From Myxococcota bacterium (GTDB lineage: Bacteria; Myxococcota_A; UBA9042; GCA-2863065), in NCBI GenBank assembly GCA_047639255.1, contig JBLINL010000001.1, positions 1 through 30,281 of the forward strand: a stretch of 30,281 bases of DNA. The letters run 5' to 3'. A program made the translations under genes and the position numbers. Shown piece by piece: positions 2,484 through 23,100 of the stretch (the stretch's first letter is position 1; every line of letters begins with the position of its first letter). The notes under the pieces are model-generated. The model was given only the letters and a program-made list of their open reading frames with translations, was not told the DNA's origin and made no database searches.

Positions 2484-2492
2484 GTCTAAGCT

Positions 2493-2518
2493 TTGACCTG
2501 GCCGGCGGCCTGGGTCAA
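2493..2518. promoter_or_regulatory. Inverted repeat TTGACC-N14-GGTCAA in the 66-bp gap between divergent genes; candidate operator or back-to-back -35 elements
   Basis: TTGACC (2493-2498) and GGTCAA (2513-2518) are exact reverse complements. The spacer contains GGCC-GGC-GGCC. It lies between GTG 2483 (minus) and ATG 2550 (plus). Confidence 0.35.
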
Positions 2519-2549
2519 TGTTCTACCGCGACCGATATACGGAGGCACC

Positions 2550-2948
2550 ATGTCCCTGATCGATGAAATCCTCAAAGCCGACCAAGCTCGGCGCATTCAA
2601 CAACAGGCGCGTGAGGCGCTCGGGCGTGAGTCCACGCGTGCCGAGACCGCGCGGAGAGCCCGGCAGGAGGGTCCAGTTCCGCCAGCCGGCACAAACACCC
2701 ATGCAGGCCGATGGGCCGCCGACCCCAACCAGAGCCTGTGCGGATTGGCGCCCGGCGACGCGTTTGTCATGACCGATTGCGGAGACGAGTTATCCGGTGT
2801 TTGGGTCGTGCGTCGCGTCACACACGCTGCCACTGGGAGAGACCTGATGGCCGTCCGGCCGGACGGCGCTGGACCAAGCTTCACCATCGATGAGGCCGAG
2901 CTTCAGGCATGCATTGAGGGAGGACAGGTCACGCGGACGGTGCTTTGA
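2550..2948 (+). CDS. Small hypothetical protein (132 aa); C-terminal half resembles part of the gp27-like barrel of VgrG/phage baseplate hub proteins
   Basis: GGAGG SD at 2541-2545, ATG 2550, TGA 2946-2948. It fills the gap between two minus-strand genes without overlap. The motif GLAPGDAFVMTDCGDELSGVWVVRRVTH was recognised by eye only. Confidence 0.7.
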   Translation: MSLIDEILKADQARRIQQQAREALGRESTRAETARRARQEGPVPPAGTNTHAGRWAADPNQSLCGLAPGDAFVMTDCGDELSGVWVVRRVTHAATGRDLMAVRPDGAGPSFTIDEAELQACIEGGQVTRTVL

Positions 2949-2958
2949 ACGCCCCCCA

Positions 2959-2977
2959 GCGCTGATGGTCTCAGCGT
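2959..2977. terminator. Short hairpin between convergent genes; weak terminator candidate
   Basis: CGCTGA (2960-2965), loop TGGTC, TCAGCG (2971-2976), lying between the TGA at 2948 and the tssA TAG at 2980. There is no U-tract on either side. Confidence 0.25.
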
Positions 2978-2979
2978 GC

Positions 2980-4290
2980 CTACCATTGGTCATCGCCATC
3001 CCCATCGCCATCGTCGTATGGCGAATCGTGCTCGCCTGCCATGTTGCCTGAATGCCCCGGCATCAGACCGGGGTGTAGCTGGCTGCCGTGAGGGTCATGC
3101 CCAACCTGGCCGTCGGCGGTGCCGGGCTGCTGGACCCCCAGTAGATCGCGCACAAAGCCCAGCGATTGGGGACCCATAACCAGTTCAGGCAGCAGCTCCT
3201 GCAACGATAGACCGCCCCAGCCAGCAGCTCGCCGCAGCAGGTAGGGAGTCGGGCTGTGTGGCTCGATACTCTCGAGGTAGTCGGCCACCTCGTTCAGCAG
3301 TTCGTACGCATGTTCGCGATCGCGAATTGCCCAAACGCCCGAGGCGTCCCCCTTCTCCGCTGGCACGGTGACAGGGACCGGCTGTGATTCGGTTGTGACG
3401 TCCTGTGGCGCAGACTCATCCTCAAACTCCTGCTCGTCCGTGTGGGCGTCCTCGTCGTCGAGGTCGTCCGGGTCGGCCAGGTCGGCAGCCTCGACTGCCG
3501 CTGTGGGCAGACTCACGTTGCATGCGGGCATCGCGATCTTCTCGACGATATGCAGGGCGGCTCTCAGCGTCTCCTGGACGGCGTACAGACTCGGAGATTC
3601 CGCACCGCAACGTTCATCGAGCAGTTTGTCCAGCGCGTCGCACATCTCCAACGCGCCGCTGATGGCGGCGTGTGTCTCTCGGAGCTCTGAAGGCCGACCC
3701 ATCGACAGCGACTTGCTCACATCTTCCTGATTCAGTTCACCTCGCTCGATAGCCGCTGCGTATGCCTTGGGTTTCTGCTTCTTCAGACGGCCAAGCGCCG
3801 CCGCGTGCTGCGAGTTATACAGCCCAACGGGAGAGCGACCATCCGAGGGGGAGACCAGAGGGATAATACGGAGCTGCCCTGCCAACCGAGTATTCATCCA
3901 GACGATCGGCGCCAAGCGATAATCCAGGTCCTCGCCGTCGATGTTCGGATGCAGGCCATCGTCCCAGAACGTCTCGCACAGGCGTAGGCACAGCTCCAAG
4001 CCATATCGAAGCCCCGGCCAACCGCGGACATGCAGCCATCCCTCAGTCAGCCAGGCCGCGATTTGCAGGTCCTTACTCTTGTCCTGCAGGGCCTTCTTGG
4101 AGAGACGCGCGACCGCGCGCCAGTCCGACTCTTTCAGCTCTTGCTTCCAGACGCCACGTGGCAGCTTGTCATCAGCTCGTCGCGCTTCTTTGATGGCTGC
4201 GTACACTGGATCGTAGCGTAGTGATTCGCCCGTAGGTGCGGTCTCAGTTATGGGCTGCAGGAGGCCCGTCAAATCGGGAGCCCATGTCAT
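2980..4290 (-). CDS. tssA: Type VI secretion protein TssA (ImpA_N domain, short type)
   Basis: The N-terminus LLQPITETAPTGESLRYDPVYAAIKEARR...DWRAV...SKDLQIAAWLTE...GL...LCETFWDDGLHP is typical of ImpA_N. The C-terminal IRDREHAYELLNEVADYLESIEPHSPTPYLLRRA is typical of short TssA. It overlaps the tssM stop as ATGA (4287-4290). Confidence 0.93.
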   Translation of the reverse strand: MTWAPDLTGLLQPITETAPTGESLRYDPVYAAIKEARRADDKLPRGVWKQELKESDWRAVARLSKKALQDKSKDLQIAAWLTEGWLHVRGWPGLRYGLELCLRLCETFWDDGLHPNIDGEDLDYRLAPIVWMNTRLAGQLRIIPLVSPSDGRSPVGLYNSQHAAALGRLKKQKPKAYAAAIERGELNQEDVSKSLSMGRPSELRETHAAISGALEMCDALDKLLDERCGAESPSLYAVQETLRAALHIVEKIAMPACNVSLPTAAVEAADLADPDDLDDEDAHTDEQEFEDESAPQDVTTESQPVPVTVPAEKGDASGVWAIRDREHAYELLNEVADYLESIEPHSPTPYLLRRAAGWGGLSLQELLPELVMGPQSLGFVRDLLGVQQPGTADGQVGHDPHGSQLHPGLMPGHSGNMAGEHDSPYDDGDGDGDDQW

Positions 4291-7200
4291 TCTCTAAGTG
4301 CCTCAGCCAGCCCCAGTGGGGGCATCGCGACCGGAAAGTGCGGAACCGACAATCGCGCTTTGTTCTTGGGCGAGTACAGGACCGAACGCACGAATAAGGT
4401 GGCCCCCCCGGCGCTTGGTCCTGCCTCGCTGGCGACCGGCTCGGTGATGATATTGAACGCCAGAGTCGTAGGGTTTCGGTCGCGACCGTCCTTCAAGCGC
4501 CACGCGGGTGCACGATGCTGACGCAATAGCCGGAGCAACGCCCAGCGTCCACGAAACGAGTAGGTGACCGTACGATTGGAGACTTGAACATTCTCCGCCA
4601 GCAGCGCCCCCCCTTCGGCCAGAAGCGTGGCACCAGCGGGACGCCCCGGCGCGTTCGCGGCCCACCGGAATAGGACGGTGACTACATCGTCCTGCCCCCA
4701 GCGGAGCTTCTGTCCGTCGGGGGTCCGCAGGTCCAAGACCTGGCGATTCACGCGGAATTGCCACTCAATCACGTGGTGGGCATTCTCCTCGTGCTCCTTG
4801 TTTACCCGGAAGGCCGCAGTGACATCGAAGCCCAGGCTTGCGATCTGCCCCTCAGCCGTGAGAGTGGTGCTAAAGAACCGGCGAAGCACACCCACGCTCT
4901 CGAGAAAATTCTCGATGTTGTTCCGATTCCAGCCGATTTCCCGATCGTCCTTGGCCCCCTTCCAGTGCTTCTCTTCGAAGGCTTCCAAACCGGCCAACCA
5001 CTCATACAGTTCCATGGGGTCCACATCGTCTGCGCAGTCATCGCAGAACGGAAACTGCTCACTCATCCGAGCAAACTGGCCGCGCAGCGGCTCGTATGCC
5101 TGCAGAGCCTTCCTGGCGGTGACCGCAAGGCACTGCCGGTCCACCAATCGCACGATGCTCTCGTGGGCGTCGCGGAAATAGTCGGTGGTGCCGTGGAGTT
5201 CGGTTCGCGCTTTTCGGGCTTCAAGGCAGTTCGCAATGCGCAGGTCCTTCAGTCCATGAAGTACCATCGCCTCCAACGGGTCCACCGAGTTCGTCTTCTT
5301 GGCCTTTTGGTTGCCGAGCGCACGCACAATCCCCTTGAAGCGTTTCTGTGGGGGCGTGTCCGCTCCGCCACCTCGATCGTTGAGGAACAGCAATAGCGGG
5401 AGGGCCGACTCCGCCAATCGACCAACTGTGGCTCTGGATTGCTCCATATCGACAGCAAGTTCGGTCTCGGTCAGAGCGCCAAACAGGAGGAAACCGAGCG
5501 GCTTCTGGCCGTCCCAGACCAGCCTTATCTCGACATCGGGCTGGTACGGTCGATCTTCATCCAGCTTGTAAGACAGCCAGCAGAGCAGCTGCTCGGCCTG
5601 ATGCACGGCAATCTCCCGAAGCCTGCGACCCACGGCGTCACCGGCGTCAAGCCCAGCATCCGTCAGATCGGCGATCAACCCGTCCAGGACCGGTAACGCG
5701 CGCCGGAAATTCGCCAACTCCTTATCCGTAAAAGAGGAGCATTTCCTGGACTCTTCCGAGCCAGGATTTGCTTCGCCGGCGCCGAAGGCAGAGGCCACGG
5801 CGGCCGTGGCACTGGACGCCACCATCTTTGACGCGACCAGCAGCAGTTTGCGGGACTCCCCGTCCCCAACCCCGTGAAAACCGTTGCGCTTGACCGCCAC
5901 GTAGCTCTGAACAAGCGTACGCGCCACCTCCAAGGCTCCTACGTTCCAGTCGACGTCCCTTGCCTTCCACTCGCTGTCGGTCGGTAGCTCGAGATTGTTT
6001 AGGTGGGGAGCCATGAATGGGCGCTTGAGCAGACTGCCAATTGCGCGCTTCAACGCGATTACCGGGGGCGCGATGTGAAAGCGGCTCGCCCAAGCCCGCT
6101 CTTCCAGTAGTGACAAGGGCGGACCATCGACGTCAGACAAGTCTGAAAAGTCGGCGCGCATTCGGCCGTACAGACGCTTCAAGCTGGCGTGAAACTGGTT
6201 CTTGCCCAACCCGAGAACGATGTCGTCGACTCCAGGCGGAAAGACGGACAGGCTGCGAACGACGTCAAGCATCTGGCTCAGTGCCTGGCCCGGCTGGAAG
6301 CTATACGACGTCAGGATTGGCTGACGACTGGAGCGCGTGGTGTTTTCGGCCTCACGAATGAAGCCCTCCAGCTCCCCGAGATATGCGCGCGTATTCTGCT
6401 GCTGGGAGACGTCGTCGGACAGTGTGGGCAGACGGTCCAGCGCGCTCTCCATGATTGTGAGCTTGTCCACCAGCGAGCTGGCATCGAACGCCGAGGCGTA
6501 CATGAGTCGAGCGAGGGTAATGGCCATCTTGCGCGCAGCTTCCTGATTCTCGGGCGTATCGAGCTGAAAGGGAGCTCCCTCGGCCGCCTGAAGTGCGCTC
6601 TCATGAAACTTGGCGTGCACGAAGTACTGGTCTGGGAGCGGCTCACCCAGCACATCATGGACCAGGCTACCGAAGTCCCCGAGCGAGCGCTTGCGGGCCC
6701 CAAGCAGTCCGGAGTAGCGAGCCGCCCAGCCGGACACCGTCTGCAGCGCCGTCACGCGCTGGAGTAGCTCAGCAAACGCCGCCGTATGCTCAAAGTCTTG
6801 TATCGTTCCGTGGTCCTTCAAATGACGAGGCGGCGTTCGGATGGCCTCGACCACCGCGGTCTCCATTTCGGCAACAATCGCCGGTAAGACCAAGCGTGCG
6901 TAACCCGCGGTGACGGCATACTGCAGCCGACCATCGACGTCGCTCCACAGGGATGTCGGTAGCCACGGCGTCTGAAGCTGCCCGTAATCCAGTGCTGCTA
7001 TTTCGCGCAGCAGGCGCGTCGCATCGGACCTGAGCCGCCCGTCAAGTCCGGGGGCCCGACCAGCTTCTCGCTGATGTCCGGCGTCCCGTACGGTTTGGAG
7101 CACCGGTTGCAACTTGCCACCGGCCTCACGGACGGAGGCGCCAGCTACCAGCATGCCCGTGACGAGCGTGGCGCCCATGATCAAGAGCGCCAACTGAATC

Positions 7201-8420
7201 GTGCGAACCGCCCGCTGACGAATCGCCACCGCCTTGGGCGCAAGCCGTGTGAGGCCCCCTTCGGGCAGTATCTTCCGGTCGAAAAGACCCTCGGCGAAAT
7301 ACATATTGCCCGGCGTGTAGGTCCACGGTGCTGGCGGCGCGTTCTCCGCGTCCGGATCACCTGCATCCTCGAGAATTGGCGCCTCAAATCCGGTTCCACC
7401 TACGAAATAGATCCCCCGAAGGAAGAACGGGTCCAGATGCACCGAGGGCGAAAAAACGCCCGACAGAAGGGCCTCCAGCCCGGGACGAGTGGTTCGTATG
7501 GCATCACGAAACTGAACAAAAGCAGCGCCGTCTTCCACCCCACGATCCGCGGCGAGCAGCGACGCCTGCACCTGGAACACGGAGGAGTCCACTTCACTGT
7601 AGGCCGCGTTGATCCAGGTTTTTCTGAAGGCGGTGTCGAGCGCGTGTGGGTTGGACCAGCCGAGGATATCGCTGACGTACCGCTCCGGTAGTTCACGAAC
7701 GAAAGCCTTGAAGCCGTGCAAGCGATCGCATCGAGACACCACGACGTGAACGGGGCACTGCAAGCCCAGCACTTGCTGCAGACGAACCAGACGGTCTCGC
7801 AGCTGCTCGGTTCGCGCTCTGATGTACTCTTCGGCGTCCGGCCCTCGCACAGCAAGCTCGTCCGCCCGAACGACAAGGACGACGCCGTCAATGGGCCGGT
7901 CGGGGCGGCGCTTCCGCAGTGCCTTCAGAATCCGACCGAAACCGCCCGTCTTGGAGGCTTCGGAGGCGTACTCGCCAGCGGCTGCCACGAGATTCCCGCC
8001 GCTCATGAAGGCCCACTCGCATCCGGCCGTGCGTCCGATGCGTGTCAACTCAGGACTCCGCTTGGCGCCCCGAGCGGCCAGATACTCCAACAATGTTGAC
8101 GTTCCAGCGGCCTCAAAACCCATCATCAAGTACCAGGGCACGGCATAAAGAGCGTCGGCTGCGGCGGTGTTGTCCTCGATTTCTCCCGCAGCCAAACGAA
8201 CCGCCGGCCCGATCTCTTTCGGCTTGAGCGCGGTCTTGGGCGTGATTTCGCCCACCGGAGAGACCGGCTGAGTCTCGGCGGCCTGCTTGGCGGCGCGGCG
8301 CTTTCGCAACGAGTCGACCGCTTTGGGCATGATGAGCCCACCGACCAACATGATGATCGACGCCAGCTTGCCGAAAGCTTTTCGGAAGTAGCGCTTGCCG
8401 AGTTTCAGCAGCGTCTTCAT
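4287..8420 (-). CDS. tssM: Type VI secretion membrane subunit TssM (IcmF/ImcF family)
   Basis: 1377 aa. Motifs include VPWYLMMG..., CEWAF, LRKRRPDRPIDGVVLVV, PVHVVVSRCDRLHGFKAF, ILGWSNP and FFLRGIYFVG. There is a TM near IQLALLIMGATLVTGMLVAG and a C-terminal FPF...GRWALLRLL. GAGGTGA SD and ATGA overlap with tssL. Confidence 0.93.
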   Translation of the reverse strand: MKTLLKLGKRYFRKAFGKLASIIMLVGGLIMPKAVDSLRKRRAAKQAAETQPVSPVGEITPKTALKPKEIGPAVRLAAGEIEDNTAAADALYAVPWYLMMGFEAAGTSTLLEYLAARGAKRSPELTRIGRTAGCEWAFMSGGNLVAAAGEYASEASKTGGFGRILKALRKRRPDRPIDGVVLVVRADELAVRGPDAEEYIRARTEQLRDRLVRLQQVLGLQCPVHVVVSRCDRLHGFKAFVRELPERYVSDILGWSNPHALDTAFRKTWINAAYSEVDSSVFQVQASLLAADRGVEDGAAFVQFRDAIRTTRPGLEALLSGVFSPSVHLDPFFLRGIYFVGGTGFEAPILEDAGDPDAENAPPAPWTYTPGNMYFAEGLFDRKILPEGGLTRLAPKAVAIRQRAVRTIQLALLIMGATLVTGMLVAGASVREAGGKLQPVLQTVRDAGHQREAGRAPGLDGRLRSDATRLLREIAALDYGQLQTPWLPTSLWSDVDGRLQYAVTAGYARLVLPAIVAEMETAVVEAIRTPPRHLKDHGTIQDFEHTAAFAELLQRVTALQTVSGWAARYSGLLGARKRSLGDFGSLVHDVLGEPLPDQYFVHAKFHESALQAAEGAPFQLDTPENQEAARKMAITLARLMYASAFDASSLVDKLTIMESALDRLPTLSDDVSQQQNTRAYLGELEGFIREAENTTRSSRQPILTSYSFQPGQALSQMLDVVRSLSVFPPGVDDIVLGLGKNQFHASLKRLYGRMRADFSDLSDVDGPPLSLLEERAWASRFHIAPPVIALKRAIGSLLKRPFMAPHLNNLELPTDSEWKARDVDWNVGALEVARTLVQSYVAVKRNGFHGVGDGESRKLLLVASKMVASSATAAVASAFGAGEANPGSEESRKCSSFTDKELANFRRALPVLDGLIADLTDAGLDAGDAVGRRLREIAVHQAEQLLCWLSYKLDEDRPYQPDVEIRLVWDGQKPLGFLLFGALTETELAVDMEQSRATVGRLAESALPLLLFLNDRGGGADTPPQKRFKGIVRALGNQKAKKTNSVDPLEAMVLHGLKDLRIANCLEARKARTELHGTTDYFRDAHESIVRLVDRQCLAVTARKALQAYEPLRGQFARMSEQFPFCDDCADDVDPMELYEWLAGLEAFEEKHWKGAKDDREIGWNRNNIENFLESVGVLRRFFSTTLTAEGQIASLGFDVTAAFRVNKEHEENAHHVIEWQFRVNRQVLDLRTPDGQKLRWGQDDVVTVLFRWAANAPGRPAGATLLAEGGALLAENVQVSNRTVTYSFRGRWALLRLLRQHRAPAWRLKDGRDRNPTTLAFNIITEPVASEAGPSAGGATLFVRSVLYSPKNKARLSVPHFPVAMPPLGLAEALRE

Positions 8421-9184
8421 CGAGTCACCTCGACACTGATGCCATCAAGTGCCTTGGAAATCGGCTGAATGCCACCCAGCCAGACCAGGTGCGAGACGAG
8501 CACCAGCACCAGCATCGCCAAGCTGCCGACGGCGAGCCACTTCTTTACGGACGGAAATCGCTCATCCGAATCGCTTTGTAGGACGTGCAGATGCGCCTGT
8601 GGGCACAGAGGCTCGTTCTCGATCCGCCTATTGGGACTCCCGCCGTATATGAAGGCATAGAGCCGGCGGCGGTATTGCAGCAGGGTCTCCACGCCATCCG
8701 GATGGTCAGCGTGGCGCCCCTGGAACCCGAGGGCCAGTGCCAGCAGGTATACGACACCCAGACCGCGCGTCGCCGAGTCACGCTCGGCCAACAGTCGATC
8801 CAGCGACTCAAAGACTCGCTCGCCAGCATCGTGGGTATTGAAGACCTCTGACTCGAGCAGATTCTCGCGCCACTGGGCACGATCCGGCCACTCCAGCTCC
8901 AGGAAGACTTCGTCCGCTAGCGCCGAGAGCAAGTATTCGACCTCCCGAAACTGCTGCGTCTCAAAAGCCCCAACCTGCCGTGACACGTCGGCCTGAAGGT
9001 CGCCCAACACGGCTTTGAGCCGTCGTCTGACGCCGCCGGCACTCAGCTCCGCAGCCCCATCCGCTCCCTCATCCGGCTCGGGATTCCGGATGGAGTCCAC
9101 CAACCGAGAGACCTCACGGAAGAAAGCATCGAAAGCACCGAGGAATACAAGTTCCGGCGGTGCGCCCGGGTCGATGACGCTCAA
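8417..9184 (-). CDS. tssL: Type VI secretion protein TssL (DotU family), C-tail anchored, no OmpA domain
   Basis: Motifs EYLLSALADEVFLELEWP...W...LLESEVFNTHDAGERVFESLDRLL...VYLLALALGFQGRH, then a single C-terminal TM. The probable start is TTG 9184, which overlaps the tssK TGA as TTGA and has GGAG upstream, rather than 9256. Confidence 0.93.
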   Translation of the reverse strand: MSVIDPGAPPELVFLGAFDAFFREVSRLVDSIRNPEPDEGADGAAELSAGGVRRRLKAVLGDLQADVSRQVGAFETQQFREVEYLLSALADEVFLELEWPDRAQWRENLLESEVFNTHDAGERVFESLDRLLAERDSATRGLGVVYLLALALGFQGRHADHPDGVETLLQYRRRLYAFIYGGSPNRRIENEPLCPQAHLHVLQSDSDERFPSVKKWLAVGSLAMLVLVLVSHLVWLGGIQPISKALDGISVEVTR

Positions 9185-10512
9185 TCCTCTCGCTCCACGT
9201 AAAGCACCAGTGCAACTGGACGCGCCAAAACATGGTGGGCCTCCGGGTTGAAACACACCAACGCTTCGCTTGGCACGATGTGTCGCTCGGTTTCAGTCAG
9301 CTCGTAGAGGAGGTTGTCCCCGGTCGGAACAAAGTCCTTATAACGATCAATCCGCCGCCGGGTCACCCCGCGCAGCCTGCGATTCCGCATCGCCTCGAGA
9401 CGACTTTCGGTGCCCATAAGCGCGCTCTCTACCCACGCCATCGCGTCCCGTTCACTGACGCCCCGGCGCGGCTGCACGGAGAGCAACACGGCGCCGGAAA
9501 GCCATTCCGGACGCAGTGCTCGCTCAAAACGATCATCGGTCAGGGTGAAGGGGTAGCCCTGGAATTGTTCGTTGGTCCCACGGTGCAGCATGCTCTCCAG
9601 CGTGCCGATCAGCTCTGAGAAACACCCCTGAAGGTCGGCGTGTGTATACGCTGGAGGAATTGGAGGAATTTGACCGGATATCAGTGAGGCCAGAGGCCCC
9701 AACAGACCACACATCCCCAGATAGATGTCGAAGGGCGAGCCGCGCCCACTGCCCAAGAGGGCCTCGAGCTGCGGCAGCCCCATCATCATGGTCTCGATCT
9801 GCCGACGGACCCTCTCGGCTATCTCATGGTCGTTGGCCAGCGATAGGTGTTGCTGTCTGTCATCCAGCAGACGCGCGCGCTGGCGCACTTTCTGGGATAG
9901 TTCAACACACAGCCGACCAGGGCCCAGCACCGATGACAGGTGAAGACGCGGAGGCTCAAATGCCGTCAGCGCAAACGCCTCGTTGCGAAATTCGACCCGT
10001 GCGACGGGCATCGAGGTGTAGCCATCCGAAACCTCGCCCGCCAACAGGTGCAGGCGAGGTCGAAGACGCGGCAACTGAATCGTGTCGTCGGCCGAGTTCA
10101 GGTCACTAACGGCGGCGCTCTCATAGCTCTCGTAGCGCGACTGGGCCGACGGCTCAGCGGAGGAGTCGACCTCAGCCCGGATCACGCCGATCGAAATGGT
10201 CAGCGGACCGTCCTGTAGCTCAGACTCGTATTGTGCCAGATCCAACCGTAACTCCGGATCCCCCGGTTGGCGACAGACAGTGATTCCGTCTGGCATCAGC
10301 GCCTCGAGTCCGACGACACTCAGGACGCCACCGCCCAGCCTGTTCTGATCCCAATCCAGCATGACAACGCCCCAGGGGTAGGGAGACGCCAACCGCGTCC
10401 GGTACCAACTCAACAGATGGCTGCGTCGGGCGGACTGCTGAAAATGCTGAGGCTGCAGGAGCATGCCTTCGTGCCACTGAATGCCATCCGGTGGAAAATC
10501 GGTACTTTTCAC
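9181..10512 (-). CDS. tssK: Type VI secretion baseplate subunit TssK
   Basis: IQWHEGMLLQPQHFQQ N-terminal signature, PWGV...GVLSV...LMPDG and PRLRPRLHLL; 443 aa. GTG start with AAGGAG SD, overlapping the tssJ TGA as GTGA (10509-10512). Confidence 0.95.
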   Translation of the reverse strand: MKSTDFPPDGIQWHEGMLLQPQHFQQSARRSHLLSWYRTRLASPYPWGVVMLDWDQNRLGGGVLSVVGLEALMPDGITVCRQPGDPELRLDLAQYESELQDGPLTISIGVIRAEVDSSAEPSAQSRYESYESAAVSDLNSADDTIQLPRLRPRLHLLAGEVSDGYTSMPVARVEFRNEAFALTAFEPPRLHLSSVLGPGRLCVELSQKVRQRARLLDDRQQHLSLANDHEIAERVRRQIETMMMGLPQLEALLGSGRGSPFDIYLGMCGLLGPLASLISGQIPPIPPAYTHADLQGCFSELIGTLESMLHRGTNEQFQGYPFTLTDDRFERALRPEWLSGAVLLSVQPRRGVSERDAMAWVESALMGTESRLEAMRNRRLRGVTRRRIDRYKDFVPTGDNLLYELTETERHIVPSEALVCFNPEAHHVLARPVALVLYVERED

Positions 10513-11114
10513 GGCGCTCCTTGAGGCGTTGCCGGCCTCGACGGGACCCTGGGGACGCCGCTTTCGTCACCCTCATAAACGACCGGATCCTGTTCTGCAC
10601 AACGTGGCAGAGGTGGCACCTTGCCAGGCTTCGCCCGCAGGTCGTGACCCAGTTGCCCTTCGATTGGTCGGGCATTGCCCTTGGTCTGATGAAGCGTCAC
10701 GCTCCACGATTGCCCAGCTGCCAGGGCAAACCGATGGTCGCCCTTTGTGAGGTAGTCAGCGTAAAGCAGAATGTGTTTGACGGACGGAGGAACGAGGAAC
10801 TTCTGCCAGACCGACGTCCCCGGAACCCACTCGCGCGTATATGCCCAGAAGCCGGAGCACCCCGGGTAATCCTGTTTTAGCTGTTCGGCTTCCTGAAACC
10901 AGACCCTCGCAGACAGCTCCTTGAGCCGAGCGACCAGGTCGTCGGAGTACACAAACACGACCGCCACCGCCACCGGGTAGCGCCGATTAGCGTCGTCATT
11001 GACCTGAACAGCCAAGTCCATCGGCTGGGAGGCCAAGCGGACGCGGCTGGCACCGCACCCCATACAAAGGAGCGCAGCGATCACGGTTGTGCTAGTCAGC
11101 AAGTATCTCGACAC
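10509..11114 (-). CDS. tssJ: Type VI secretion outer-membrane lipoprotein, TssJ-like (divergent)
   Basis: Probable GTG start at 11114 with GAGG upstream. Signal-like VSRYLLTSTTVIAALLCMG|C puts Cys at residue 20. The core VQVNDDANRRYPVAVAVVFVYS...LKELSARVWF...EWVPG resembles TssJ-type lipoproteins, and it sits directly before tssK. Confidence 0.75.
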   Translation of the reverse strand: MSRYLLTSTTVIAALLCMGCGASRVRLASQPMDLAVQVNDDANRRYPVAVAVVFVYSDDLVARLKELSARVWFQEAEQLKQDYPGCSGFWAYTREWVPGTSVWQKFLVPPSVKHILLYADYLTKGDHRFALAAGQSWSVTLHQTKGNARPIEGQLGHDLRAKPGKVPPLPRCAEQDPVVYEGDESGVPRVPSRPATPQGAP

Positions 11115-11175
11115 CCCTCGACCTCGCCGTTGCGTATCTGAATTCTTGGAGGCTAGTTCGGCATCGAGAGAAACG

Positions 11176-14100
11176 CTAGTTATCCACAGGTAGTTCTCTG
11201 ACTCGGGCGGCTTTGGGAGAGGGGCACGTATCCAGGACCTCGGCACGCTGGGGACACTGTCGGGCGTCATGCCTCGCACAGCTGCCAGGCTTCATGCGCA
11301 GCCGAAACTCTACGCCGCCGTGCTGCTGCTCACACTTCCGGGGTTGCCGGTCGTGCTTCACCGACAAGGGCAGATGTACCTCGGCCTTATTAAGCAGCGC
11401 GACCACTGCGTGCGCGCGCGCCCACGCCACCTTGCTGGCCGGGACTCGCAATTGGGCCGCTTCGAACCGCTTGCGCTCCGTCTCCACTGCGTAACCGACG
11501 ACATCGATTCCCTCAATAAGGCTGTTCCCTTTGATGGCGGCCAGCGTCGCGGCCATCTCTCCCAATTGCAACGAGCGCAAGATCCAGTCGGTCTCCTGAG
11601 GACGCGCCGTATCCGTCGGCTTCGGGTCACGCCGATCTGTTTCGGAGAACGGGATCAGCACCGATCCGATCGTCTGGGCGCACTCTGGAAGGCAGTATCC
11701 AATGTTCTTCTCGCGCGCATCGGGGCAACCGTCCTCGTCGCGGTATCCATTGTACGTTTCCGCGCGAAGAGGGCACTGGTCGAAAAGGTCGATGATTGCG
11801 TCGTTGTCGTTGTCCGGATCCGGACATCCATCCGCGTCCTGAAAGTTGTCGACGTCCTCAGGCTCATACGGGCATCGGTCATGTACATCAACCCGGCCGT
11901 CTCCGTCGTGATCGGCGTCTGGACACCCATCTTCGTCGCGGTCCAAGTTGAAGTCTTCGGCAATCCGCGGGCATGCATCTCTCGAGTCGGGGATTCCATC
12001 GCCATCGTCATCCTCATCCGGGCACCCGTCACCATCACGATAGCCGTCGCGGTCCTCCGGCTGGATCGGGCAGCGGTCCGCGAAAGCGAGAACCAAATCA
12101 AGGTCCGGATCCGGCTCTTGTGGAACCCAGACCAGGGACACAAGACCGCGAAACCGCGGCGCCCCACGTCCCAGCAGAATCCCCCCGCCCGCCGCCAGCT
12201 GCAGCTCCAGCTCTCGAAACAGACGAATGCGAGGTCCCGCAACCAGCTCAAGAGTTGTCGCCCGCTTTTCCTGGAACGGCGCCACCAACTCGGTGCGACC
12301 AAACACCTCGACGGCGAGGTCCAGGTAGCCACGCCAGGCATCGACCTCAAACCCGGCACCGAAAGTGAGGTCGTGGTCAACGATCGTATCGAATAATTTG
12401 GATGGATACGTTCGAAACCTGGCGCCTACATTCAGTGCCGTCGTGAAGCGCGGCGCACGGAAATCGAAGATGAAGGTCGTGAGGATGCCGAAGCCGATGT
12501 CCGACCGGAATCCACCATCGTTGCCGGTCGGTGCCGACGCGCCCACCGTCAGTCCCAGTCCCGCGCCACCGGCCCTGTTGTCCAACAGGCGGGTCCGGAC
12601 GCGCAGCACGAGGTCACCCAAACCGGCCCCACTAAAATCGGCCACCCCGGACGGCGTACCGCCCCCCTGCGCCTCGAGCACCAGGGGCAGCGCCATGTCG
12701 ATCTGCACCCAGCCAAACAGACCGACCCCGAGGTTGAGGTCGGCCAGGACCTGCAGCGGCAAAACTTCCTGTGAGAACCCCTCCACATCCAGCCGTACGG
12801 AGTCCGTTTCGACCCGGAATTGGATCGATCCATACGGCTGCAGGTGCGGCCCTGGCGGGGATTGCTCCAGCGTCCAAATCCGGTACGGCCCACCATGGGT
12901 CGTCCAGGTACTCAGATTGACCTTCTCAGCTTCCTGGGCGTCCGCCGGAGCCGGTATCAAGAGTAAGAAGATGCACAGCCACTTGCGGCTACTCCGACTT
13001 CCCAGCATCAGCACCACGAAAAGCAACGTGAACAACATCAGGCCGGCAGCCTCCGCCCCAACGCGCGGCTGGGAGCCGCAGCTCGCAGGCTCGCTCCCCG
13101 AGCCACTCAGTTGCCCGGCTTTGAAGTCATCGCCGCTCAGGTTCGGGTTGGTGCCAGCCGCCACCTCGGCGCCGTCTGGAACGCCGCCGTCGTCGGTGTC
13201 GACCTTCAGCGGGTCCGTCCGCACTCCGTTGACCTCAAAACCATCGAACAGTCCGTCGCCGTCGGTATCCGGGTTCAGCTCGTCGGTATGCGTGCCCGGC
13301 CAGGACGGCACACCGCTGGGCACCGGCTCGTTCTCAGATGGGAGGTGAAATCCGCACTCCTCGATATTGGACAGGCCGTCCGCATCGAAGTCCGCCAAGA
13401 TGTCCTTCGGATCTGTCGGATCGAACTCGCACCACGAGACGCAGAGCGTCACCTTGGCCGTTTCCCAGAGGCTGGTGCAGCTCACGATCGTCTGGCCGAC
13501 TAAAGTCGGGTGTGGGACGCCGCCGACCATTCCATCCTGATTCCAGTCCTCTTCACCGTCGCTACGGCCATCGCCATCGGTGTCGGCACGGCCGGGATCG
13601 GTCGTTGTAGTCGGGTCCCGGTCACTCACGAATGACGTGCAGACCGCCGGCGCCAGCGGGTCTCCCTCGGCGTCTGGGTCTTCCTCGGCGGCGGGGTCAT
13701 CCGGTGTCTCGGCATCCGGAGGGCACTTGTCTGTCCGCGCCCCTCCGGGCGGCGACAGCGTATCCCCGCCAACAACGCTGTTGGCGATGTCCAGGTCCGT
13801 CAGGCCGTACTCGGTTCCATCACAGACGGTATCTCCGTCACTGTCACCGTTGAGCGGGTCCGTTCCCAGAATCATCTCGACTCCGTCGGACAGACCGTCG
13901 TTGTCCGAGTCGGCGTCCACGGGACTGGTCTTCAGATTACATTCCTGTTCATCGCTCAGACCATCGCCGTCGTAGTCCAGATCAACACAATTCAGGGTAC
14001 CGTCCTTGTCGTGATCCAGCACATCGTCCAGCTCGGGCGGCTGGCTGGCCGGGTCCAGCGGATCGTACCCACAGATGATCTCGCCGACGTCGTAAACGCC

Positions 14101-17100
14101 GTCACCGTCATCATCGAGGTCCTGGCAGCCGAGTTCGCCGTCAGAATCGATGTCGGCGAGGCTATCCGCACCCGGTGTCTCGGTATTGTCCTTGGGGTTG
14201 GTACCGCACTTCAATTCCAGGGCATCACTGACCGAGTCGCCGTCGGTATCCAATTCCAGCTCGGCGCACAGCGCGCCGGTGAAGGACGGTGTGGGCGCAC
14301 TGAGCGGATCATCCAGCAAGGTCCCACAGGCGTATTCGTCTCCGTCGCCCCAGCCATCGCCGTCCGAATCTTCCATGGTCGGGTTGCTCTCGCCAGCGTC
14401 CACGATGCCGTTGGAATTCTTGTCCTCAAAGCCATCATTGAGGCCGTCGCCGTCGGTATCGTCATTATCCCAGTCGGTCTTCTTGCACTCTCCCGAGTCC
14501 AGTAGCTGGTAACAGGATCCGTATTCGACTCCATCGCTCAAGTCATCGTCATCGCTGTCGGCCGACCCCGTCTGGTTATTGCCGTCCCCGCCCGCGAGCA
14601 GGAGCTCCAAGCCGTCGCTCAGACCGTCGCCGTCCGTGTCCGGATTGAGCCAGTTCGTCTTGCCCTGCTCTGCCCCGGGAAACTCGTCGACGTTGGGAAT
14701 CGAGTCTCCATCAGCATCTTCATCCGCGCAGTTAAGAATGCCATCGGAGTCGAAGTCCTCTAGAGCCTTGTCCGTGGGTCGGAAGGCCTGGTTGAACTCG
14801 TCCTGACTTTCCCGCGTCTTGGGCAACGGCAGCTTGCCACCCAGCTCCGCCAGGGGCCCGGCCTTGTCTCCCACATAATTACCGGGACAGGCCATGGGCG
14901 GACAGATGCTCAACGCATCCTGACACAGTCGCTCATGCATGTTGGATGCGCCGTCGCCGTCCCAGTCCTGGTCGGCGCACGCTGGGTGCTGCTCGGCGCA
15001 GTCCTCGTCGTCGCAATCCACCTTACCGTCGGCGTCGTCATCCAGCCCATTGGTGCAGGCGAACTCCTGGGCTCCGCAGCTGACGGTAAGTACGACATCA
15101 TCCAGCGCTACGGACGAACATCCGAGATTCTCGATAACCACATGCCGCGTGTCACCGTCATGTACCGGTACAAAGCTCGCTTGGAGGGGTTCCGGGTCCT
15201 GATCGCACTCAGAGGTCGCCTCGATCTTGGTGGTGTCACATTGGGACTCCGGACAGAGGGCGGTGGTGAATTGGTTGAGCGCGAAGCCAGACGCGGTCAG
15301 CTTGAACGCCACGTCGAGGCTGCCTGAGTCATCGAGCTGCTCTGATTCGGTGTCACGATACTCATAGGCAACGATGACGTCCTCGCCACTGCCCGCCTCA
15401 CCGTTCAGACAAGCGAAGTGATCATTGCCCTTCATGATGCTGAGCGTGAAGATGTCACCACATCGGACGATCTTTGGATCGGCGCAGGACCGACCCTCGC
15501 AGCCCTGGCCCGGGTAAACGGTCTCGTTGTCGTCGTTGCAGTCCAAATGGCCCGCGTTGCTCAGCCCGTCCGGCTGGCCCAGCGAGGGACAATCCAGCTG
15601 GAGCCCGGGCGCCGGCATGGTCGCCGAATAACCGTCCTGATCAGTGTCGTTGCACAGGTCCACGCAGGAATGCGTCTGGTTGTCCCCTTCCAGGCTGGAA
15701 CACCCTTTGGCCAGCTCCTTGCACACCACCTTGCACCCTTCGGACGTCTCATTATCAGCGTCACAGGGATTATCGAGATTCTCGGGCATGTCGAACATGG
15801 CCAGAACAGCGAACCACTGCTCGCCGTCCAGGCCGAGCTTGTCTTTGGCGACCTCAAAGCCGCCTTCGCCCTCGCAGTCTTCATCCGTTAGGACATCCAG
15901 CACGTCGCAGACGCCGTCCGAGTCGGTATCGATGGTGTCGTCGTCGACCTTGCCGTTGCAGTCGTCATCCAGCCCGTCGCAGGCCGCTTCGCCGCAGGAA
16001 TTGGTGTCCCCGCGCGTGCCAAGACTGGCTTCCTTACTGAGACACCATTTGGACCAGGCGTTGTTCGCATCCGCGACCTCCGAGCCCAGGAACTGTATCG
16101 TGCGGCCCCCCTTGCCGCCGTCATAGAGACAGGCTTGCTCGGGCCCGGGAAGCTCCGACATCGTCAGCCCGTCTACGAGTTCCTCGGACGCCGCGACATC
16201 TAAGGACTCGACGGTGAGCTGCAGCGAACTCAGCGCGTCTGACGGCCGAGGGCAGTAGAGCGTCCCGTCAAATGCATCGACTCCCAGGGGTGGCTGACCG
16301 TCGGTCGAGAAGTCCAAAACGAGAAAGTCGTCCTTGGCCAACACCCACTCGCCAGTGGCCGGAATCGTAGGCGCACAGTCCGGATGCAGGTCGATAACGT
16401 CATCGTCCCACTGGATTTTCAGACCGGCGCGAACCAACTCGATCTCGGCCCCCGTGCCATTGAACAGCTCCACCCACTGCAACTTGCCGTCGGGGTCGAG
16501 CTTGAACTCCGTAAAGACGAGCCGCGCTCCATCTCCGGTCTGCAGCATGCAGTTGGTCTTGCATCCCGATGATTTGCCACCAGGAATGCCATGATCGCAC
16601 TGCTCACCTTTCTGCGCGACGCCGTCACCGCAGACAAAGCAGTCGTCGTCGTCCCGATCGTTGACGAAGCCGTCGCAGTCCTGGTTGCCCACAATCGCGC
16701 ATTCCGTGAGGGCGCTTTGGGTCGGGACATCCGGGTTGCCGTCGTTGCAGTCGGTCCCCGGGACGACGCTGCTCCACTCGATCGAACAATACCCATCCCC
16801 GTCCGGGTCGTAACAGTCGTCCTGTTCCAACGGCTCCCCTTCGGCGTCCAGCGCCGGGCAAACCACGGACGGACCGAACTGTTCGAACGCCTTCGGGCCG
16901 GCTGGGTCGGCCAGCGTGTCGCCGTCGCTCCAGATTTTGACACTGTGAATCTGGACCGTCGTATTGGCCGCGCCGCCAGCAAAAATCGTAATGTATGCGG
17001 GCGTACCCTCGGGAGGCTTCAGCGGCAGAGTATCCTTCTCCCCCGACCAAAGCTGCGGCTTCAGCCCAAACGGCGTTTGTACGCTGTTTGCGATCGGCTT

Positions 17101-20100
17101 GAACACGACGTGTGGCGGTTCGCCAGCGGGCCCATTTGCACACTCCAGTGGCGTCAACGGCACTTTACTGAGGCAAACGCCGACCATCACAGAGGTCGTC
17201 CCTGCCACCTCGGCCAGCATCACCAACTGTGGCTCCGGCATGCCATCCAAGCCATTGAGGGTAAGCGTGATGCCGGTCGGCTCGCCATCGCTCGTTGTGG
17301 TGATCGTCCCGGCCGGCCAGGGCGGGTCCGCGTCGGGCGTGGTCCTCCACCCCTGCCAGCCGTTGTCAAAGGTGTAGGCGAACTCGCACGGCTGGCAATA
17401 GGCGCCCACCGTCAACTGGGGATCCGCATCATTGCAGTCGGGTTGCGCCCCAAACCCGGCTGGCAGCTGAAGGCCAACGCTCCCGGTCTTGCCGGCAAAC
17501 CCGTCACCGTCCAGGTCCCAGAACTGATCGCAACCCGCCGCGGCACCGTCAAAGCCGGCCACGTTGAGGATGGGGGAAAGCTCCGTGTGGTCGTCGATCG
17601 CCGCGACCAGTTCTTCCAGGCTGTACTTAGCGTTCTCTGCTGTATCGTTGTCCCCGTCCGTGGTCCACCACACGCGCTCCAGGAGCACTTCCGACGAGGC
17701 GGGTACCTGAAACGCCACCGTCAGGGGCTGGGTGTCATCCACGAAGTCATCCAAGCCAGCCAGGCTCAGGGACCCGGTTCCGTCAGCCGTCTTGAGCAGA
17801 ATCTGGGGCGCCAGTGTTTCCTTCGCGCCCACCTCGGCTGCGACGCTCAGCGCATCCCCGTCCGCGCCCGGGTTGACCACCTGGAACTCAAACTCCAAGA
17901 CGGGCTCGCCATCGTGAGCCAGGCTCGCAGCCAGATCAAACTGCGCCTCGTACTCGCCCAGCGTCCACTCCGCCGGGTCGGGCGCGGTAGCCGCGCTCTC
18001 GACCGCACCGCATGGATAGGTCCCGATCACGCGACTGGAACTGGGAAATAGCTCGGCGTTTCCGCCTGACCACGTGAGGCTGGCCACCAACCTGGCGTGG
18101 GAGCGAGCGGTGGTGGTGCCAGCAATGGCGACAGCGAACGCCACCGAACCGGAATTCGAGACCTGGATGCTGCACTCCGGAGCCGAGGCACACCCCGCCA
18201 GCTCGCCGGCGGCCACGATCGATATGTCAAGCGGCTCCTGGCTGCCATCGACCGACTCCAACGCCAACGTCAACGTAGCGTTGTCCAGCGTGTCAAAGCC
18301 GAACAGGTCGTAGGCGACGGAGCCGGGAACATAGCTTCCGGGCAGCCGACTGATGAGCGCGCCACGGGAGGTGGTATCCGATAGCGCTATGCTGACTACG
18401 GGCACCACCGGATCGATCTCTATAGACACCTGGCCAGGCGTGTGCGGGGTGCCGGGATCGTCACTGGACGCTGCGTAGATCGACAATTCAAACGTCCCTG
18501 AAGCCAGCTCAAGTGGCAGCGCGATGTCCAGGGTCGTCGCCTCCGGATCCACCGCACCCGCAGAATCACCGGCCAGGGAACCGGAGAACCATGACAGGTC
18601 ATCGCCCTGGCATGGCGAGGTATGGCCGGGTGGCGGCGTGCTCTCCTGGCCCCACGACAAGCAGGTGGTGTCGCAGCCTACGGTCCCCCCGACTGCGACC
18701 AAAGAGGCACACAACCAGACGTTGTCGATACTCAGGTTCCCATCGTTCCGAATCGTGACCTGCTGGGTCCGGGTTTGGCCGCGCTTGGCTCCCGTGCCCT
18801 CTGCGTTGAGCGCGTCCGCGCCGGCGGTGACGGTCAGGATCGGTTGCGCCCCCTGGACCGTTCCGATTGGAGCATGACAGTTCGCTGCAGATGGACCACC
18901 GTGACCGCAGAGGCAGTCGTCCGCCACGGTATTCCCGCACGCCGAGCTGGTCGCATATCCCCGGCATACAATCTCCGCGGCCGACACGCCCACCGCGATG
19001 GATGGCAGTGGATCCAGGAGTATGAGTGGCAACGTCACCACCGCGGACTCGCCGGGGGCCACCGCCGGCGCCGTTTTTCGAAAGGCTCCGTCTTGGTCCT
19101 GAGTCCACCCGTTGAGAGGCCCATTCTCGGGGTCTAGAGCCGCCAACGGAACGAAGCCCTCGACCGGGGGACCAAATCCCGCGTTGGCAACCACTGTGTA
19201 GGTGGTTTCCTCGTCGGGCTGCGTTGTGGTCGAAGCCGAGCCGCTATTGGTCACGAGGAATTCGCAGTCGAATAAGCTTCCGGGTTCGATGCCGACGAGC
19301 GGGGGCGCCTGGGCCGCCAAAGCCACCTTCGGCGCCGTATTGATTGCGCCCGTCCAGTCGGCGAACTGCTGCGTGCCCAATGAATGCTGGACCACAACCT
19401 GGCTGCTCTCAGGCTGTGCGTCGACCAGCACACTGACGGTGACCGAAGCTTCTGTCTTGCCAGCACTGAGTTCGGGCACGACCAAAGTACAGATGTCGGA
19501 ACTTGAATTGCATACCCAATCCACGTCGTTGATGATCGCGTTGGTCAGACTCAACTGAATCCTGTCGGATGCGGGCGCCTGGTCTCCCAGGTTCTGCAGC
19601 GTGAAAGCGTAGACAAACAGTTCGCCCGCCAATACTTCCGACCCTTGTGGCGTCGTGGGCGCCAGCGTGACCTGATCCGCGCCCGTTATGGGAATGGCGC
19701 AGCCCTGACAGTCGGCGTCTGGCACCGGCGTACCGTTCACCTGCACCGTGACCTTCATCGTCCCGCCGTCGGGCGTCGGGATGAAGGCATCAGCCGTAGC
19801 GCGAAACGACACGGTCTGACTCGCGACGCCTTCTACCTGGACCGAATCCGTACAGCTTGAAGTCGCGTCCGAGCACTCCATCGTGGTGTTGCCCTCGGGC
19901 AATCCGAGTAGTCCACCACCCGCCCCCAGAACCTGCAACGAGACCGGCGCAGCGGCAACCCCCTGGTCTCCGGTATTGCTGATCACCAGCTCCCACGTGA
20001 CCGTGGCGTCCGGCGTCGTAGCCACCTCGCTCGGCGTGGCGACCACGGTAAAGGGGCCAATCCCACCCCCGAGGGCCTGCTCAAACTGTTGGGACAGTAG

Positions 20101-23100
20101 GGTCGCATTGTCCTGATCCAGCGCCTTGACCAGGCCCGTGATCTGGCCCCCACCCTCGGCGGCGAAAGTATCCGTCAGCGCGTAGGCAAGGTCGTAGTGC
20201 AATACCTCTTGCTTTTCCATGGTGCCGTCGACCCCAAGGTCTATCAGCCGCCCGTCGCACTCAAACGACCCGGGCGTGGCTTGCACCATGGTCCCGCCCG
20301 TCTCGTTGTCGTTGCTCTGCAGTGTGACGGTCACCCCCCCGTTCTTCACGTCGTGTGCCGGGGTACAGATCAGCAGCTGGACGCCGTTGACCGTAAACGT
20401 CGCCTCGTTGGTGACCGTGAGGGTGCGTTCGTAGGTTGTGGACGCAGGCGGAGCCGCTTGGTCGTAGGGCTCAAAATCCAGCTTCAGGGTCGCCGCCGCA
20501 TTGACTCCTACGGTCACAACGACCGACTCGTTGGCCGCGTGCCCCTGGTCGTCTTCAAGCGTAAATGTCACTTGTAGTTGGTTGGTTCCGCCCGGCAGCG
20601 ACTCCTTGAGAACAAGGGCAAAGCCTTCATCCAGGTAGACCTCGCTCGGGAACAACCGAGACAGCGTTCTCTTGACCGTATTGGGCTGGCCGGGATCCGT
20701 CACCCAGTCCGTGGCGAACTCGGGTGCGACATCAGCAAGAGTCTCGTCGAATGTGGCCCGCAGCGTCAGCCGGTCACTCTGCTTGGCATGCTCAGCGGGC
20801 GACCCCGCCTTGTAATTGCGATACTCCAGAATGTATTGAACCGACCCACCGGGAGGATAATTCTCAAACTGCACTCCGGTCTCTCGGAAGAAGAGTGCGG
20901 GGGTCGCGTCGAAATCGAGCACCCGCTCGTCGGACGAAAACGTAAGATTGTCGTCGAAGGCGGTGATGACGACAGTGGCATTGTCCGCGTCGTAGACCAA
21001 CGGAGAGAGCACTTCAAGCGTCGTCGTCACGTTGGGCGTTACGCTCTGGCCCGGCGCGATCGTGTCGCTCAGCGCAAGGGTGCAGACGTCGCCGGCATCG
21101 ACTCCGTCTGGGCATTGCCACCCCTCCTCTACACCCACATAGCGCGTGTAACTCGGAACGGTCAGCGTGAACGTCGGCTGAGCAGCCTGCTTCGCCGACG
21201 CGTCGTTGGTGACAGTCCAGGCCAGCGTCACGTTGTCGGCCGGCTGGAGCTCGATGGTGGCGTTGTCGGTTGTCCCCGGATAAGACACTACGACCTCAGG
21301 TGACGCAGTGATACCGATCGGGGCGGCCAGCTCCGCCTCAGCTTCAACGCTGGATAACACCAGGAACTGCACGGATGGGTCCAGACTCTCAACGCCAACA
21401 CCGACCGGATCCGTCACCCTGACAATGAGCGACAGGGTGACGGCAGGCTCGTCTGCGGTTGCAATTATCGTTTCCGACTCAAAGACACCAGCCGAGCCGG
21501 TCCAGCTGCTCTGCCCCTCGACCAGGGTTACGACATCAGACCCGAACGCGACCTCGACCTTTCCGGTAATGGAACCGTCGCCCTTGTTTTCGGTTTCGAT
21601 CGAAAGGGTCACAGTGCCACCGGGCACCACAGTGGTTTGTCCAGTCACCACAGACAGTTTCAGAGAGGTGGAAGTGGACGTATCAATGACGCTGCACCCA
21701 GCATCACACGGGTACGGGTCAGGGCCCACTGTCGGCTTGGTCTCGCCTATGACCGCGTAGGCGATGATCTCCGTCGTCTCGGGCAACAGCGAGTCGGACA
21801 CCTGTGCGGGCAAGGTAGCGGTTGCAAGGTCTACGGCGGGACCTCCGACCGGGCCAAGTGTCGTCTCGCATACCACATTCGGGGTGCCGCTATCGCACGA
21901 CCAATCGGTGGTCGGAAGGGCCGTCACGTCGGCCGGGACGATCAGCCAGAGTTTGTCGCCTACCGACGCCTGGGTACCCGTATTCTCAACGGTTATAGTA
22001 TAGCTCAGCGCCACGCCCTGACTCACGGACGAGCTCGGATCGGACAACGCCGACTTGATTCTCAATTCGGGTGCCCCCGCCAGGGGAACCATCATCGATG
22101 CGGCGATGTTGTCCGCGGGGTTGGCATCTTCGCCGTCGTTGTCCGAATGAGTGACGGACCCCGTGAACGTGGCTGTCACCGATGTCTCGCCGGCCGAGGG
22201 AAGAGGCAACGTGTCGACGACCTTCAGCCGCAGCTTCTTCACTGGCGAGCCGAGGTCGACCACTATAGAGCATGTGCTCTCTCCTCCGGGGCACACCCAC
22301 TCTGTTTCGACAGGCTCATCCACCTCGGTATGCTGGGGGATGTCGATTGTCACGGTGACCGTCCCCGGCCGCTGAGTCTGCCCATCAGCCTGCGCGACCG
22401 TCACTTCCAGGTCAAGGGCGCTCTTAGGCTCAATGACAGTGCCCGTAGTCCACTCCAGTGCGGGCACTGTATTTTCGGGTCCGTACAACAGTCTCGACGT
22501 CATCGACAAGTCCGGCGACGCGTCCAAGACGACCGATGCGTTGTCGGTGTGGTCGGGAGGCTCGGTCGTCGATACGCCGTCCCAGAGTTGCGCGCTGCTC
22601 GTCACAACTTCCGTACCGGCGAGAATCGGGTTGGTCACAGTAGTTTGCAACAGCAGATCCTGGGACGCCTGGGCGTTGAGGCTGACGGTGCGCTCGTAGA
22701 GTTTGGGCTCGGCGCTGCCTGAGACCAGACTCCACACCTGACCGCCGGGCACACTGAGCACTGACTCATCCACGCCGACGCGAACGGTCGCCGTGGCGTC
22801 TTGATTGCCGGCATTGGAGACGCTGGCGGTCCAGGTCACACTATCCCCTGCTTGAGCCGGATCTGGCGTAGCGATGTAGACGACTTGCAGCTGTGGAGAA
22901 GCGGTCAACACCACCGACTTGGTAGCTTCGAACGGCTGACTGTCGACAGTGAACGAAGCGGTGGTCGCGATCGTTTCAGCCCCTTTCGTAACGGAGCTCT
23001 TGATGGCCAGGGGAAGTACCATCTCCGTCGCCACTCCCGGAAGAAAGTCGCGTGGGTCGGAATCGCACTTGGTGCCGTTGCACCCGGACCAATCGATCGC

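Follow-up and report, generated by a model that had tools for sequence, protein, structure and literature searches.

The closest described counterparts of the gene analyzed here come from Myxococcus xanthus, in which TraA, a surface receptor with Cys-rich repeats and a MYXO-CTERM sorting tag, has as its partner TraB, a protein comprising a signal peptide, a beta-barrel, thrombospondin type 3 (TSP3) repeats and an OmpA-like domain (PMC3325183). The two are encoded by separate genes, traA and traB, which overlap by 4 bases (PMC3325183). For TraA, a recent study (PMC11980579, mBio 2025) established a pathway in which Sec exports the protein, the tag helix anchors it, the tag Cys is presumably lipidated, the intramembrane protease MrtX cleaves in a Cys-dependent manner, and type II secretion carries the product to the surface. 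The Discussion of the same study singles out the M. xanthus protein MXAN_5598, whose MYXO-CTERM motif is internal and flanked by a large adhesin on one side and a barrel-plus-OmpA region on the other, as an “atypical configuration,” likens it to TraA plus TraB, and proposes that its N-terminal portion is processed and surface-anchored; internal MYXO-CTERM cases are called rare there, and a second hydrophobic segment or internal signal peptide is not mentioned in the retrieved text. Here, we analyzed a stretch of 30,281 nucleotides from a Myxococcota bacterium (contig JBLINL010000001.1 of assembly GCA_047639255.1; the window refers to this whole stretch), on which a giant gene joins an adhesin to a TraB-like barrel protein in one reading frame. 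We favor, and hold to be probable, the explanation that two envelope proteins, encoded elsewhere as separate neighboring genes, are here naturally fused in frame, and that the product would be cut twice to give a lipid-anchored adhesin and a free barrel. On this reading, the fusion partners are a giant surface adhesin ending in a MYXO-CTERM-type tag and a TraB-like outer-membrane protein that brings its signal peptide, a barrel of 12 strands, TSP3 repeats and an OmpA-like domain.

The window constitutes an entire contig (C1), which belongs to a metagenome-assembled genome that is fragmented (1,039 contigs) and 81% complete. A single open frame on the minus strand (11176-30279), the strand on which all features of the gene lie, encodes the adhesin and the barrel protein in 6,367 codons plus a stop (11176-11178), the adhesin continuing into the second protein without an intervening stop codon. 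The giant passenger (13117-30279) exceeds 5,700 residues and, in Pfam and NCBIfam scans, contains Cys-rich repeats, DUF11/CARDB-type immunoglobulin-like repeats and many acidic bacterial TSP3 calcium-binding repeats. Neither a PA14 domain nor TraA-type Cys-rich repeats (TIGR04201) were matched in visible residues 1-5800 of this N-terminally cut-off protein, and those Cys-rich repeats that it does contain fit no model. The protein that follows the junction comprises ~590 residues.

The junction itself (residues 5722-5781 of the frame translation) displays the parts of a C-terminal sorting tag followed immediately by those of a signal peptide. A Gly/Ser-rich linker, GQLSGSGSEPAS (13081-13116), precedes Cys5734 (13078-13080), which aligns to the invariant MYXO-CTERM-like Cys and is the presumed site of lipidation and myxosortase action, and a short spacer separates this Cys from a first hydrophobic helix of 17 residues, AAGLMLFTLLFVVLMLG (13000-13050), the candidate transmembrane helix of the tag. 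There follow the basic loop SRSSRK (12982-12999), with three Lys/Arg residues (two Arg and one Lys) and no acidic residue, a second hydrophobic stretch of 12 residues, WLCIFLLLIPAP (12946-12981), and the c-region ADA (12937-12945), after which the sequence continues as QEAEKV. With 633 residues C-terminal to Cys5734, the tag is internal rather than at the protein C-terminus, where the MYXO-CTERM definition expects it. The loop SRSSRK would be the cytoplasmic turn of a hairpin, doubling as the tail of the tag and as the n-region of the signal peptide. In an AlphaFold2 model, two junction helices (model residues 73-87 and 93-101) coincide with the two hydrophobic stretches. An earlier interpretation of this DNA by a model given only its letters and open reading frames (the sequence-only reading) had placed the linker, Cys, helix, RSSRK, second hydrophobic stretch and ADA/Q site in one frame, and the translation is identical to that description.

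Several observations identify the second hydrophobic segment, together with ADA (12937-12981), as an internal signal-peptide-like element. The succession SRSSRK, WLCIFLLLIPAP and ADA/Q meets the layout of a Sec signal peptide, with a basic n-region, a hydrophobic h-region and small residues at -3 and -1. By using a weight matrix trained solely on the signal-peptide cleavage regions of 39 standalone homologues, ADA/Q was ranked first among 6,347 positions of the giant protein, at 14.2 bits (mean -28.9, standard deviation 10.4, runner-up 5.5), and every fused junction scored positive on the same matrix. This is in line with the ~40 standalone homologues (~600 codons each), whose N-terminal signal peptide ends in AxA/Q at the alignment column that holds the internal site in fused proteins; across 70 fused and standalone homologues, the Ala at -1 is at least 90% conserved. 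Because the standalone homologues bear their signal peptide at this column, the sequence comparison indicates that the second hydrophobic segment is a signal peptide that has been retained and is still under selection, and signal peptidase I is predicted to cut after Ala5781, leaving QEAEKV as the new N-terminus. A second membrane-crossing helix is also what topology calls for, since a tag helix that stops transfer leaves the tail in the cytoplasm and the barrel must regain the periplasm.

The junction is not peculiar to the window. A search of 41 related genomes with the junction region returned at least 58 stop-free matches spanning it, with open frames of up to 6,033 codons; several of these genomes carry four to six copies, some in tandem, and the family turned up throughout Myxococcota when species-representative genomes were scanned. 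We aligned 30 non-redundant fused junctions from Myxococcaceae, Archangiaceae, Kofleriaceae, Haliangiales, Sandaracinaceae, Polyangiales, Bradymonadia and the window’s own family, spanning three classes (Myxococcia, Polyangia and Bradymonadia) and including isolates of Corallococcus, Pyxidicoccus, Vitiosangium and Hyalangium. The Cys and the Ala at -1 are the sole invariant columns of this alignment. In 29 of the 30 junctions, a parser recovered an uncharged helix, a loop, a second hydrophobic stretch and a small-x-small site that is usually followed by Gln, the loop between the helices measuring 3-23 residues (typically ~6) and containing 3-10 Lys/Arg and almost no acidic residues; the remaining junction (L054) was mis-split by the parser and, on visual inspection, follows the same pattern. 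The second hydrophobic segment that the sequence-only reading expected in homologues is thus present, and its idea of one basic patch shared between tag and signal peptide in a helical hairpin agrees with the single basic cluster found between both helices in most homologues. We regard the architecture and the hairpin as solid; the observation behind the sequence-only reading is confirmed, and its interpretation is upheld in part.

The part downstream of the junction was described beforehand as a complete beta-barrel, and structure prediction upholds this. The AlphaFold2 model, built from a 70-sequence alignment, has a mean pLDDT of 82 and displays 12 long strands, mostly above 90, a repeat region and a less confident alpha/beta domain. 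The strands (residues 5814-6051; model residues 142-379; window 12124-12840) belong to an outer-membrane barrel of the COG4313/Phenol_MetA_deg type, TraB-like, assigned to 12124-12936 by Pfam, AlphaFold2 and Foldseek. Foldseek matched it to the 12-strand COG4313 channel 4rl8 (E = 5e-10) and to FapF, with a TM-score of 0.71 by target and E ~1e-9. A sequence search of solved structures gave an OmpA periplasmic domain as its sole match. Pfam recognized the barrel as PF13557 (Phenol_MetA_deg; 24.9 bits against a threshold of 22) and also matched TSP3. The TraB model NF033763 scores 101 bits, below its cut-off of 700, and this part of the window protein is a distant TraB paralogue with the same domain order. 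The barrel is as similar to FapF, an outer-membrane transporter of functional amyloid subunits, as to the COG4313 channel; as a lead from the modeled fold, TraB-like barrels might conduct or hold a polypeptide.

The barrel is followed by TSP3 calcium-binding repeats of the DxDxDGxxDxxD/DGCPD form (11719-12120; Pfam and alignment) and by an OmpA-like C-terminal domain with degenerate peptidoglycan-binding motifs (11296-11664; alignment and AlphaFold2 model). In this domain, GYAV replaces GHTD, HGGVEF replaces NRRVEF, and a 12-residue gap is present relative to the family; PF00691 (OmpA) gave no Pfam match in the window protein. The GYA(W/S) change is common to the related copies L002, L003 and L014, and the motif comparison suggests that the whole subclade may have repurposed its OmpA-like domain.

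The identity of the sorting tag has to be judged separately for the family and for the window copy. The sequence-only reading had called the tag MYXO-CTERM, and for the family this holds: TIGR03901 matches 27 of the 30 homologous junctions, TIGR03382 matches 17 of them, and the Cys, present in all 30, is the only invariant column within the tag. The genome contains at least 27 tags above the curated TIGR03901 cut-off of 20 bits, and the internal tags of three fused paralogues score 24.5 (C878, above the cut-off), 18.2 (C363) and 17.5 bits (C19). For the window copy the name does not hold by score. The sequence-only reading had itself held that a missing tag score would speak against it, and TIGR03901 gives the window fragment none. 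This copy is filed as a divergent MYXO-CTERM-type tag by position and homology and not by model score, because both tag models fail on it while the Cys, the helix and three basic residues are kept; the assignment is weak. The two kinds of processing enzyme are present in the genome: a myxosortase core domain (NF040914 at G000:C298, 143.6 bits, cut-off 100) and two signal peptidase I genes.

From these parts, a course of processing can be proposed. The Sec system would export the passenger until the tag helix halts transfer, leaving the basic loop in the cytoplasm, and the signal-peptide-like helix would then restart export for the barrel part, so that a two-helix hairpin would span the inner membrane. 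Signal peptidase I would cleave after ADA (Ala5781) and free the barrel protein for outer-membrane insertion, while the tag would be lipidated at Cys5734 and cut by myxosortase, as established for TraA (PMC11980579), freeing the adhesin to the surface. The hairpin would be discarded, and one precursor would yield two partner proteins in equal amounts. For this family we infer everything past Sec export, including both cleavages, surface anchoring and the one-to-one stoichiometry, and dual cutting is the best reading of the data. The sole experimental hint comes from the published fused case, MXAN_5598, which was detected in outer-membrane/vesicle proteomes (PMC4158809). Complete fused homologues begin with a signal peptide of their own (lipoprotein-type in L021 and L045, type I in L039).

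A number of results weigh against dual cutting. TIGR03901 found no match in the 121-residue fragment, in the whole-genome search at E<=1 or in the 85-residue junction at E<=10, and a tag model built from 22 terminal tags of the same genome scores the window tag at -9.4 bits, the shuffle maximum being 11.5. The tag signature is S-C-G-S and not G-C-T/S (generic G-C-G/T/S), and SRSSRK makes a weaker tail than the RRR(R) seen in nearly all homologues and in the genome’s own tags. The two junction helices are modest in model confidence (pLDDT 58-70), and the 5' end of the gene is truncated by the contig end, placing its own N-terminal signal peptide or export signal outside the visible sequence. 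The type II system is the reported route of MYXO-CTERM proteins (PMC11980579), and of the type II secretin only a fragment was found, at 63.7 bits and under the cut-off, a result that is uninformative given the 81% completeness of the genome. Finally, a cleavage product has been observed for no member of the adhesin-barrel family.

The alternative that best survives this evidence is that the window copy is cut by signal peptidase only, its degenerate tag being no substrate for myxosortase and its passenger remaining anchored in the inner membrane by the hairpin or being freed by another protease. The failure of both tag models favors this, the own-genome model setting the window tag far below its closest relatives L002 (24.9 bits) and L003 (27.9 bits), as does the OmpA-like domain, whose degeneration in the same copy suggests a fast-evolving paralogue. 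However, the Cys is kept at the invariant column together with the helix and three basic residues, the Cys was shown to be the critical determinant for TraA (PMC11980579), and an adhesin-repeat protein of ~5,700 residues trapped in the periplasm would make little functional sense; we consider single cutting unlikely. A second alternative, which we rate as improbable, is that the barrel is made mostly from an internal start at Met5758 (13006-13008; MLGSRSSRK...), the read-through fusion being incidental. The in-frame ATG lies three codons ahead of the basic patch, so that a protein started there would carry a textbook signal peptide, and in a survey of 16 of the 30 fused loci, an in-frame ATG, GTG or TTG was found near the junction in 14. 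Against it, a Shine-Dalgarno-like motif precedes such a codon in only one of the 16, two have no candidate start, and GC-rich coding for Leu- and Val-rich segments yields such codons by chance; a conserved internal ribosome-binding site before the barrel was not found in these loci. The Met5758 start could add barrel protein separately, while the fusion protein would be made in any case, because ribosomes on the giant gene meet no stop codon ahead of the barrel. An error of assembly or sequencing, or a stop codon lost recently as in a pseudogene, might be suspected in so fragmented a metagenome-assembled genome but is rejected as scarcely credible, because the same junction is stop-free in all 30 aligned loci, isolate genomes included, persists without a stop at 38-45% identity across many genomes, complete isolate chromosomes among them, and has the design reported for MXAN_5598 (PMC11980579).

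The history of the joint was examined in a barrel-domain tree (quick search; 70 rows, 276 columns). The tree requires 11 switches between the fused and standalone states, and well-supported branches force at least seven of these; the total of 11 may fall slightly, because three rows labeled standalone (L035, L038 and L083) reach a contig end and their labels are uncertain. The window copy lies within a 13-member clade of 100% support, 12 of whose members are fused, and its nearest relative is the copy in G005. Since traA and traB overlap by 4 bases, one small indel would turn such a separate pair into a fusion. Tandem adhesin-barrel arrays with 7-8 kb spacing were seen on G007:C279 (41063, 48169 and 56238) and G003:C5 (14529, 22739 and 30160); in the lowest-coordinate copy of both arrays, only the barrel part was matched and the open frame is short (332-409 codons). 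Two homologous loci, L019 and L055, come from bins labeled Enterobacteriaceae and Rickettsiales, labels that may be wrong because L019 is sister to a Myxococcota row with 100% support.

The same joint recurs within the genome of the window, in which we found ~10 internal sorting tags, each followed by a type I or lipoprotein signal peptide. The proteins so joined are adhesin-barrel pairs (five times, the further ones being on C19, C363, C878 and C538), a row of three DUF2330 units, a pair of metallopeptidases, and an FG-GAP adhesin coupled to a lipoprotein. The DUF2330 case (C496; L096 = G000:C496:1-5015; ORF 2-4441, minus strand) is one frame of 1,480 codons with three tandem units, each of which begins with a lipoprotein signal peptide and ends with a tag, the joint reading as a MYXO-CTERM tag and then ...A/CGGFFC. 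The orthologous DUF2330 pair (L103, L104 and L105) is fused in G001 and, in G003 and G006, parted by in-frame stops only a few codons past the tag, a natural side-by-side of the fused and separate states. On C565 (L099, G000:C565:959-2722), two zinc metallopeptidases share one frame, and on C8 (L097, G000:C8:2149-5961), an FG-GAP/invasin-like adhesin is joined to a lipoprotein of ~190 residues. An unannotated pair joined by an internal tag and signal peptide was also observed on C206 (L098, G000:C206:1245-2414).

Downstream of the giant gene, the same strand (2980-11279) carries genes of a type VI secretion system (T6SS), and the giant gene stands directly upstream of a lipoprotein-like ORF of 256 codons with no family match, possibly TssJ (10509-11279 as an upper bound), tssK (9181-10512), tssL/DotU (8417-9256), tssM (4287-8420) and tssA (2980-4290). 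A 697-codon ORF downstream of tssA (390-2483) and a 151-codon ORF on the opposite strand (2493-2948) had no Pfam match at E<=0.001. The order from the lipoprotein-like ORF through tssK, tssL and tssM to tssA is repeated after the closest homologue in another genus (G005; L095 = G005:C151:1-11434). An adhesin-barrel gene heading a tssJKLM-tssA cluster in two genera hints at a possible link of cell-surface recognition to type VI secretion.

Should dual cutting be true, myxobacteria would routinely produce at least two envelope proteins per precursor by means of two ordinary inner-membrane proteases and a disposable hairpin, with the partners fixed at equal amounts and delivered together, which would be unusual for bacteria. 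Dual cutting would be easy to test, because cleavage assays for myxosortase exist (PMC11980579). For annotation, each such gene is labeled as one giant protein of the “OmpA family,” and models that look for a tag at the C-terminus overlook internal ones. More speculatively, and with clear reservation on our part, the tag-plus-signal-peptide hairpin may be a general, reusable “polyprotein joint” in Myxococcota and not a one-off, by which a single ORF would encode any run of exported proteins, to be separated at the inner membrane; the FapF/COG4313-like barrel could then be the conduit or anchor of its co-made adhesin, as in a cut-apart autotransporter, with the window copy linked to T6SS as well. 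What is new here is that the fusion is common and recurrent, that the same joint couples other protein families in the genome, and that the window copy lies directly upstream of T6SS genes.

Known systems resemble this arrangement to different degrees. The NCBIfam family NF033207, “midcut-by-XrtH,” is a curated family named for a sorting signal in mid-protein, and six of the 30 junction segments match it weakly; it belongs to another sorting system (exosortase/PEP-CTERM type), the best E-value is 0.047, and the matches probably reflect only the common helix-plus-basic design. Type Va autotransporters share with the window protein a passenger that is N-terminal to a 12-strand barrel in one precursor, and two-partner secretion shares an adhesin with a dedicated barrel, whereas the window’s passenger and barrel are split by a tag and a second signal peptide and would be cut apart in the inner membrane, and its barrel is of the COG4313/FapF type and not of the autotransporter type. 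Polyproteins with an internal signal peptide include the cytochrome b/c1 precursor FbcH of Bradyrhizobium and the glycoprotein precursors of flaviviruses and bunyaviruses, in which the internal signal peptide restarts translocation and a cut by signal peptidase yields two separate mature proteins, either membrane-bound or secreted; these are unrelated in sequence and have no C-terminal-type sorting tag, lipidation or outer-membrane barrel. A limited literature search for bacterial polyproteins with internal signal peptides found none, returning only a bunyavirus review (PMC7926653). TraA and TraB provide the same parts in two genes and not one, and orthology with TraAB was rejected on the NF033763 score (101 bits against 700), the neighborhood and the barrel tree. 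The closest likeness is to MXAN_5598, in which one ORF likewise runs from a large adhesin through an internal tag of the MYXO-CTERM type to an outer-membrane barrel and OmpA domain (PMC11980579), and the caution voiced in the sequence-only reading, that TraA-TraB-type fusions may already exist in myxobacteria, proved apt. The Corallococcus locus L018, taken as the MXAN_5598 orthologue because ftsZ follows it, has the same second hydrophobic segment, ending in AHA/Q. The window gene differs from MXAN_5598 in that its barrel falls in a separate clade of 100% support, its neighbors are T6SS genes and not ftsA/ftsZ, its passenger is far larger and its tag is divergent; orthology between the two was rejected on the neighborhood and the barrel clade. 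The window gene therefore adds a new member, very large and not orthologous to MXAN_5598, to the kind that this protein had already brought to notice, and the architecture as such is not new.

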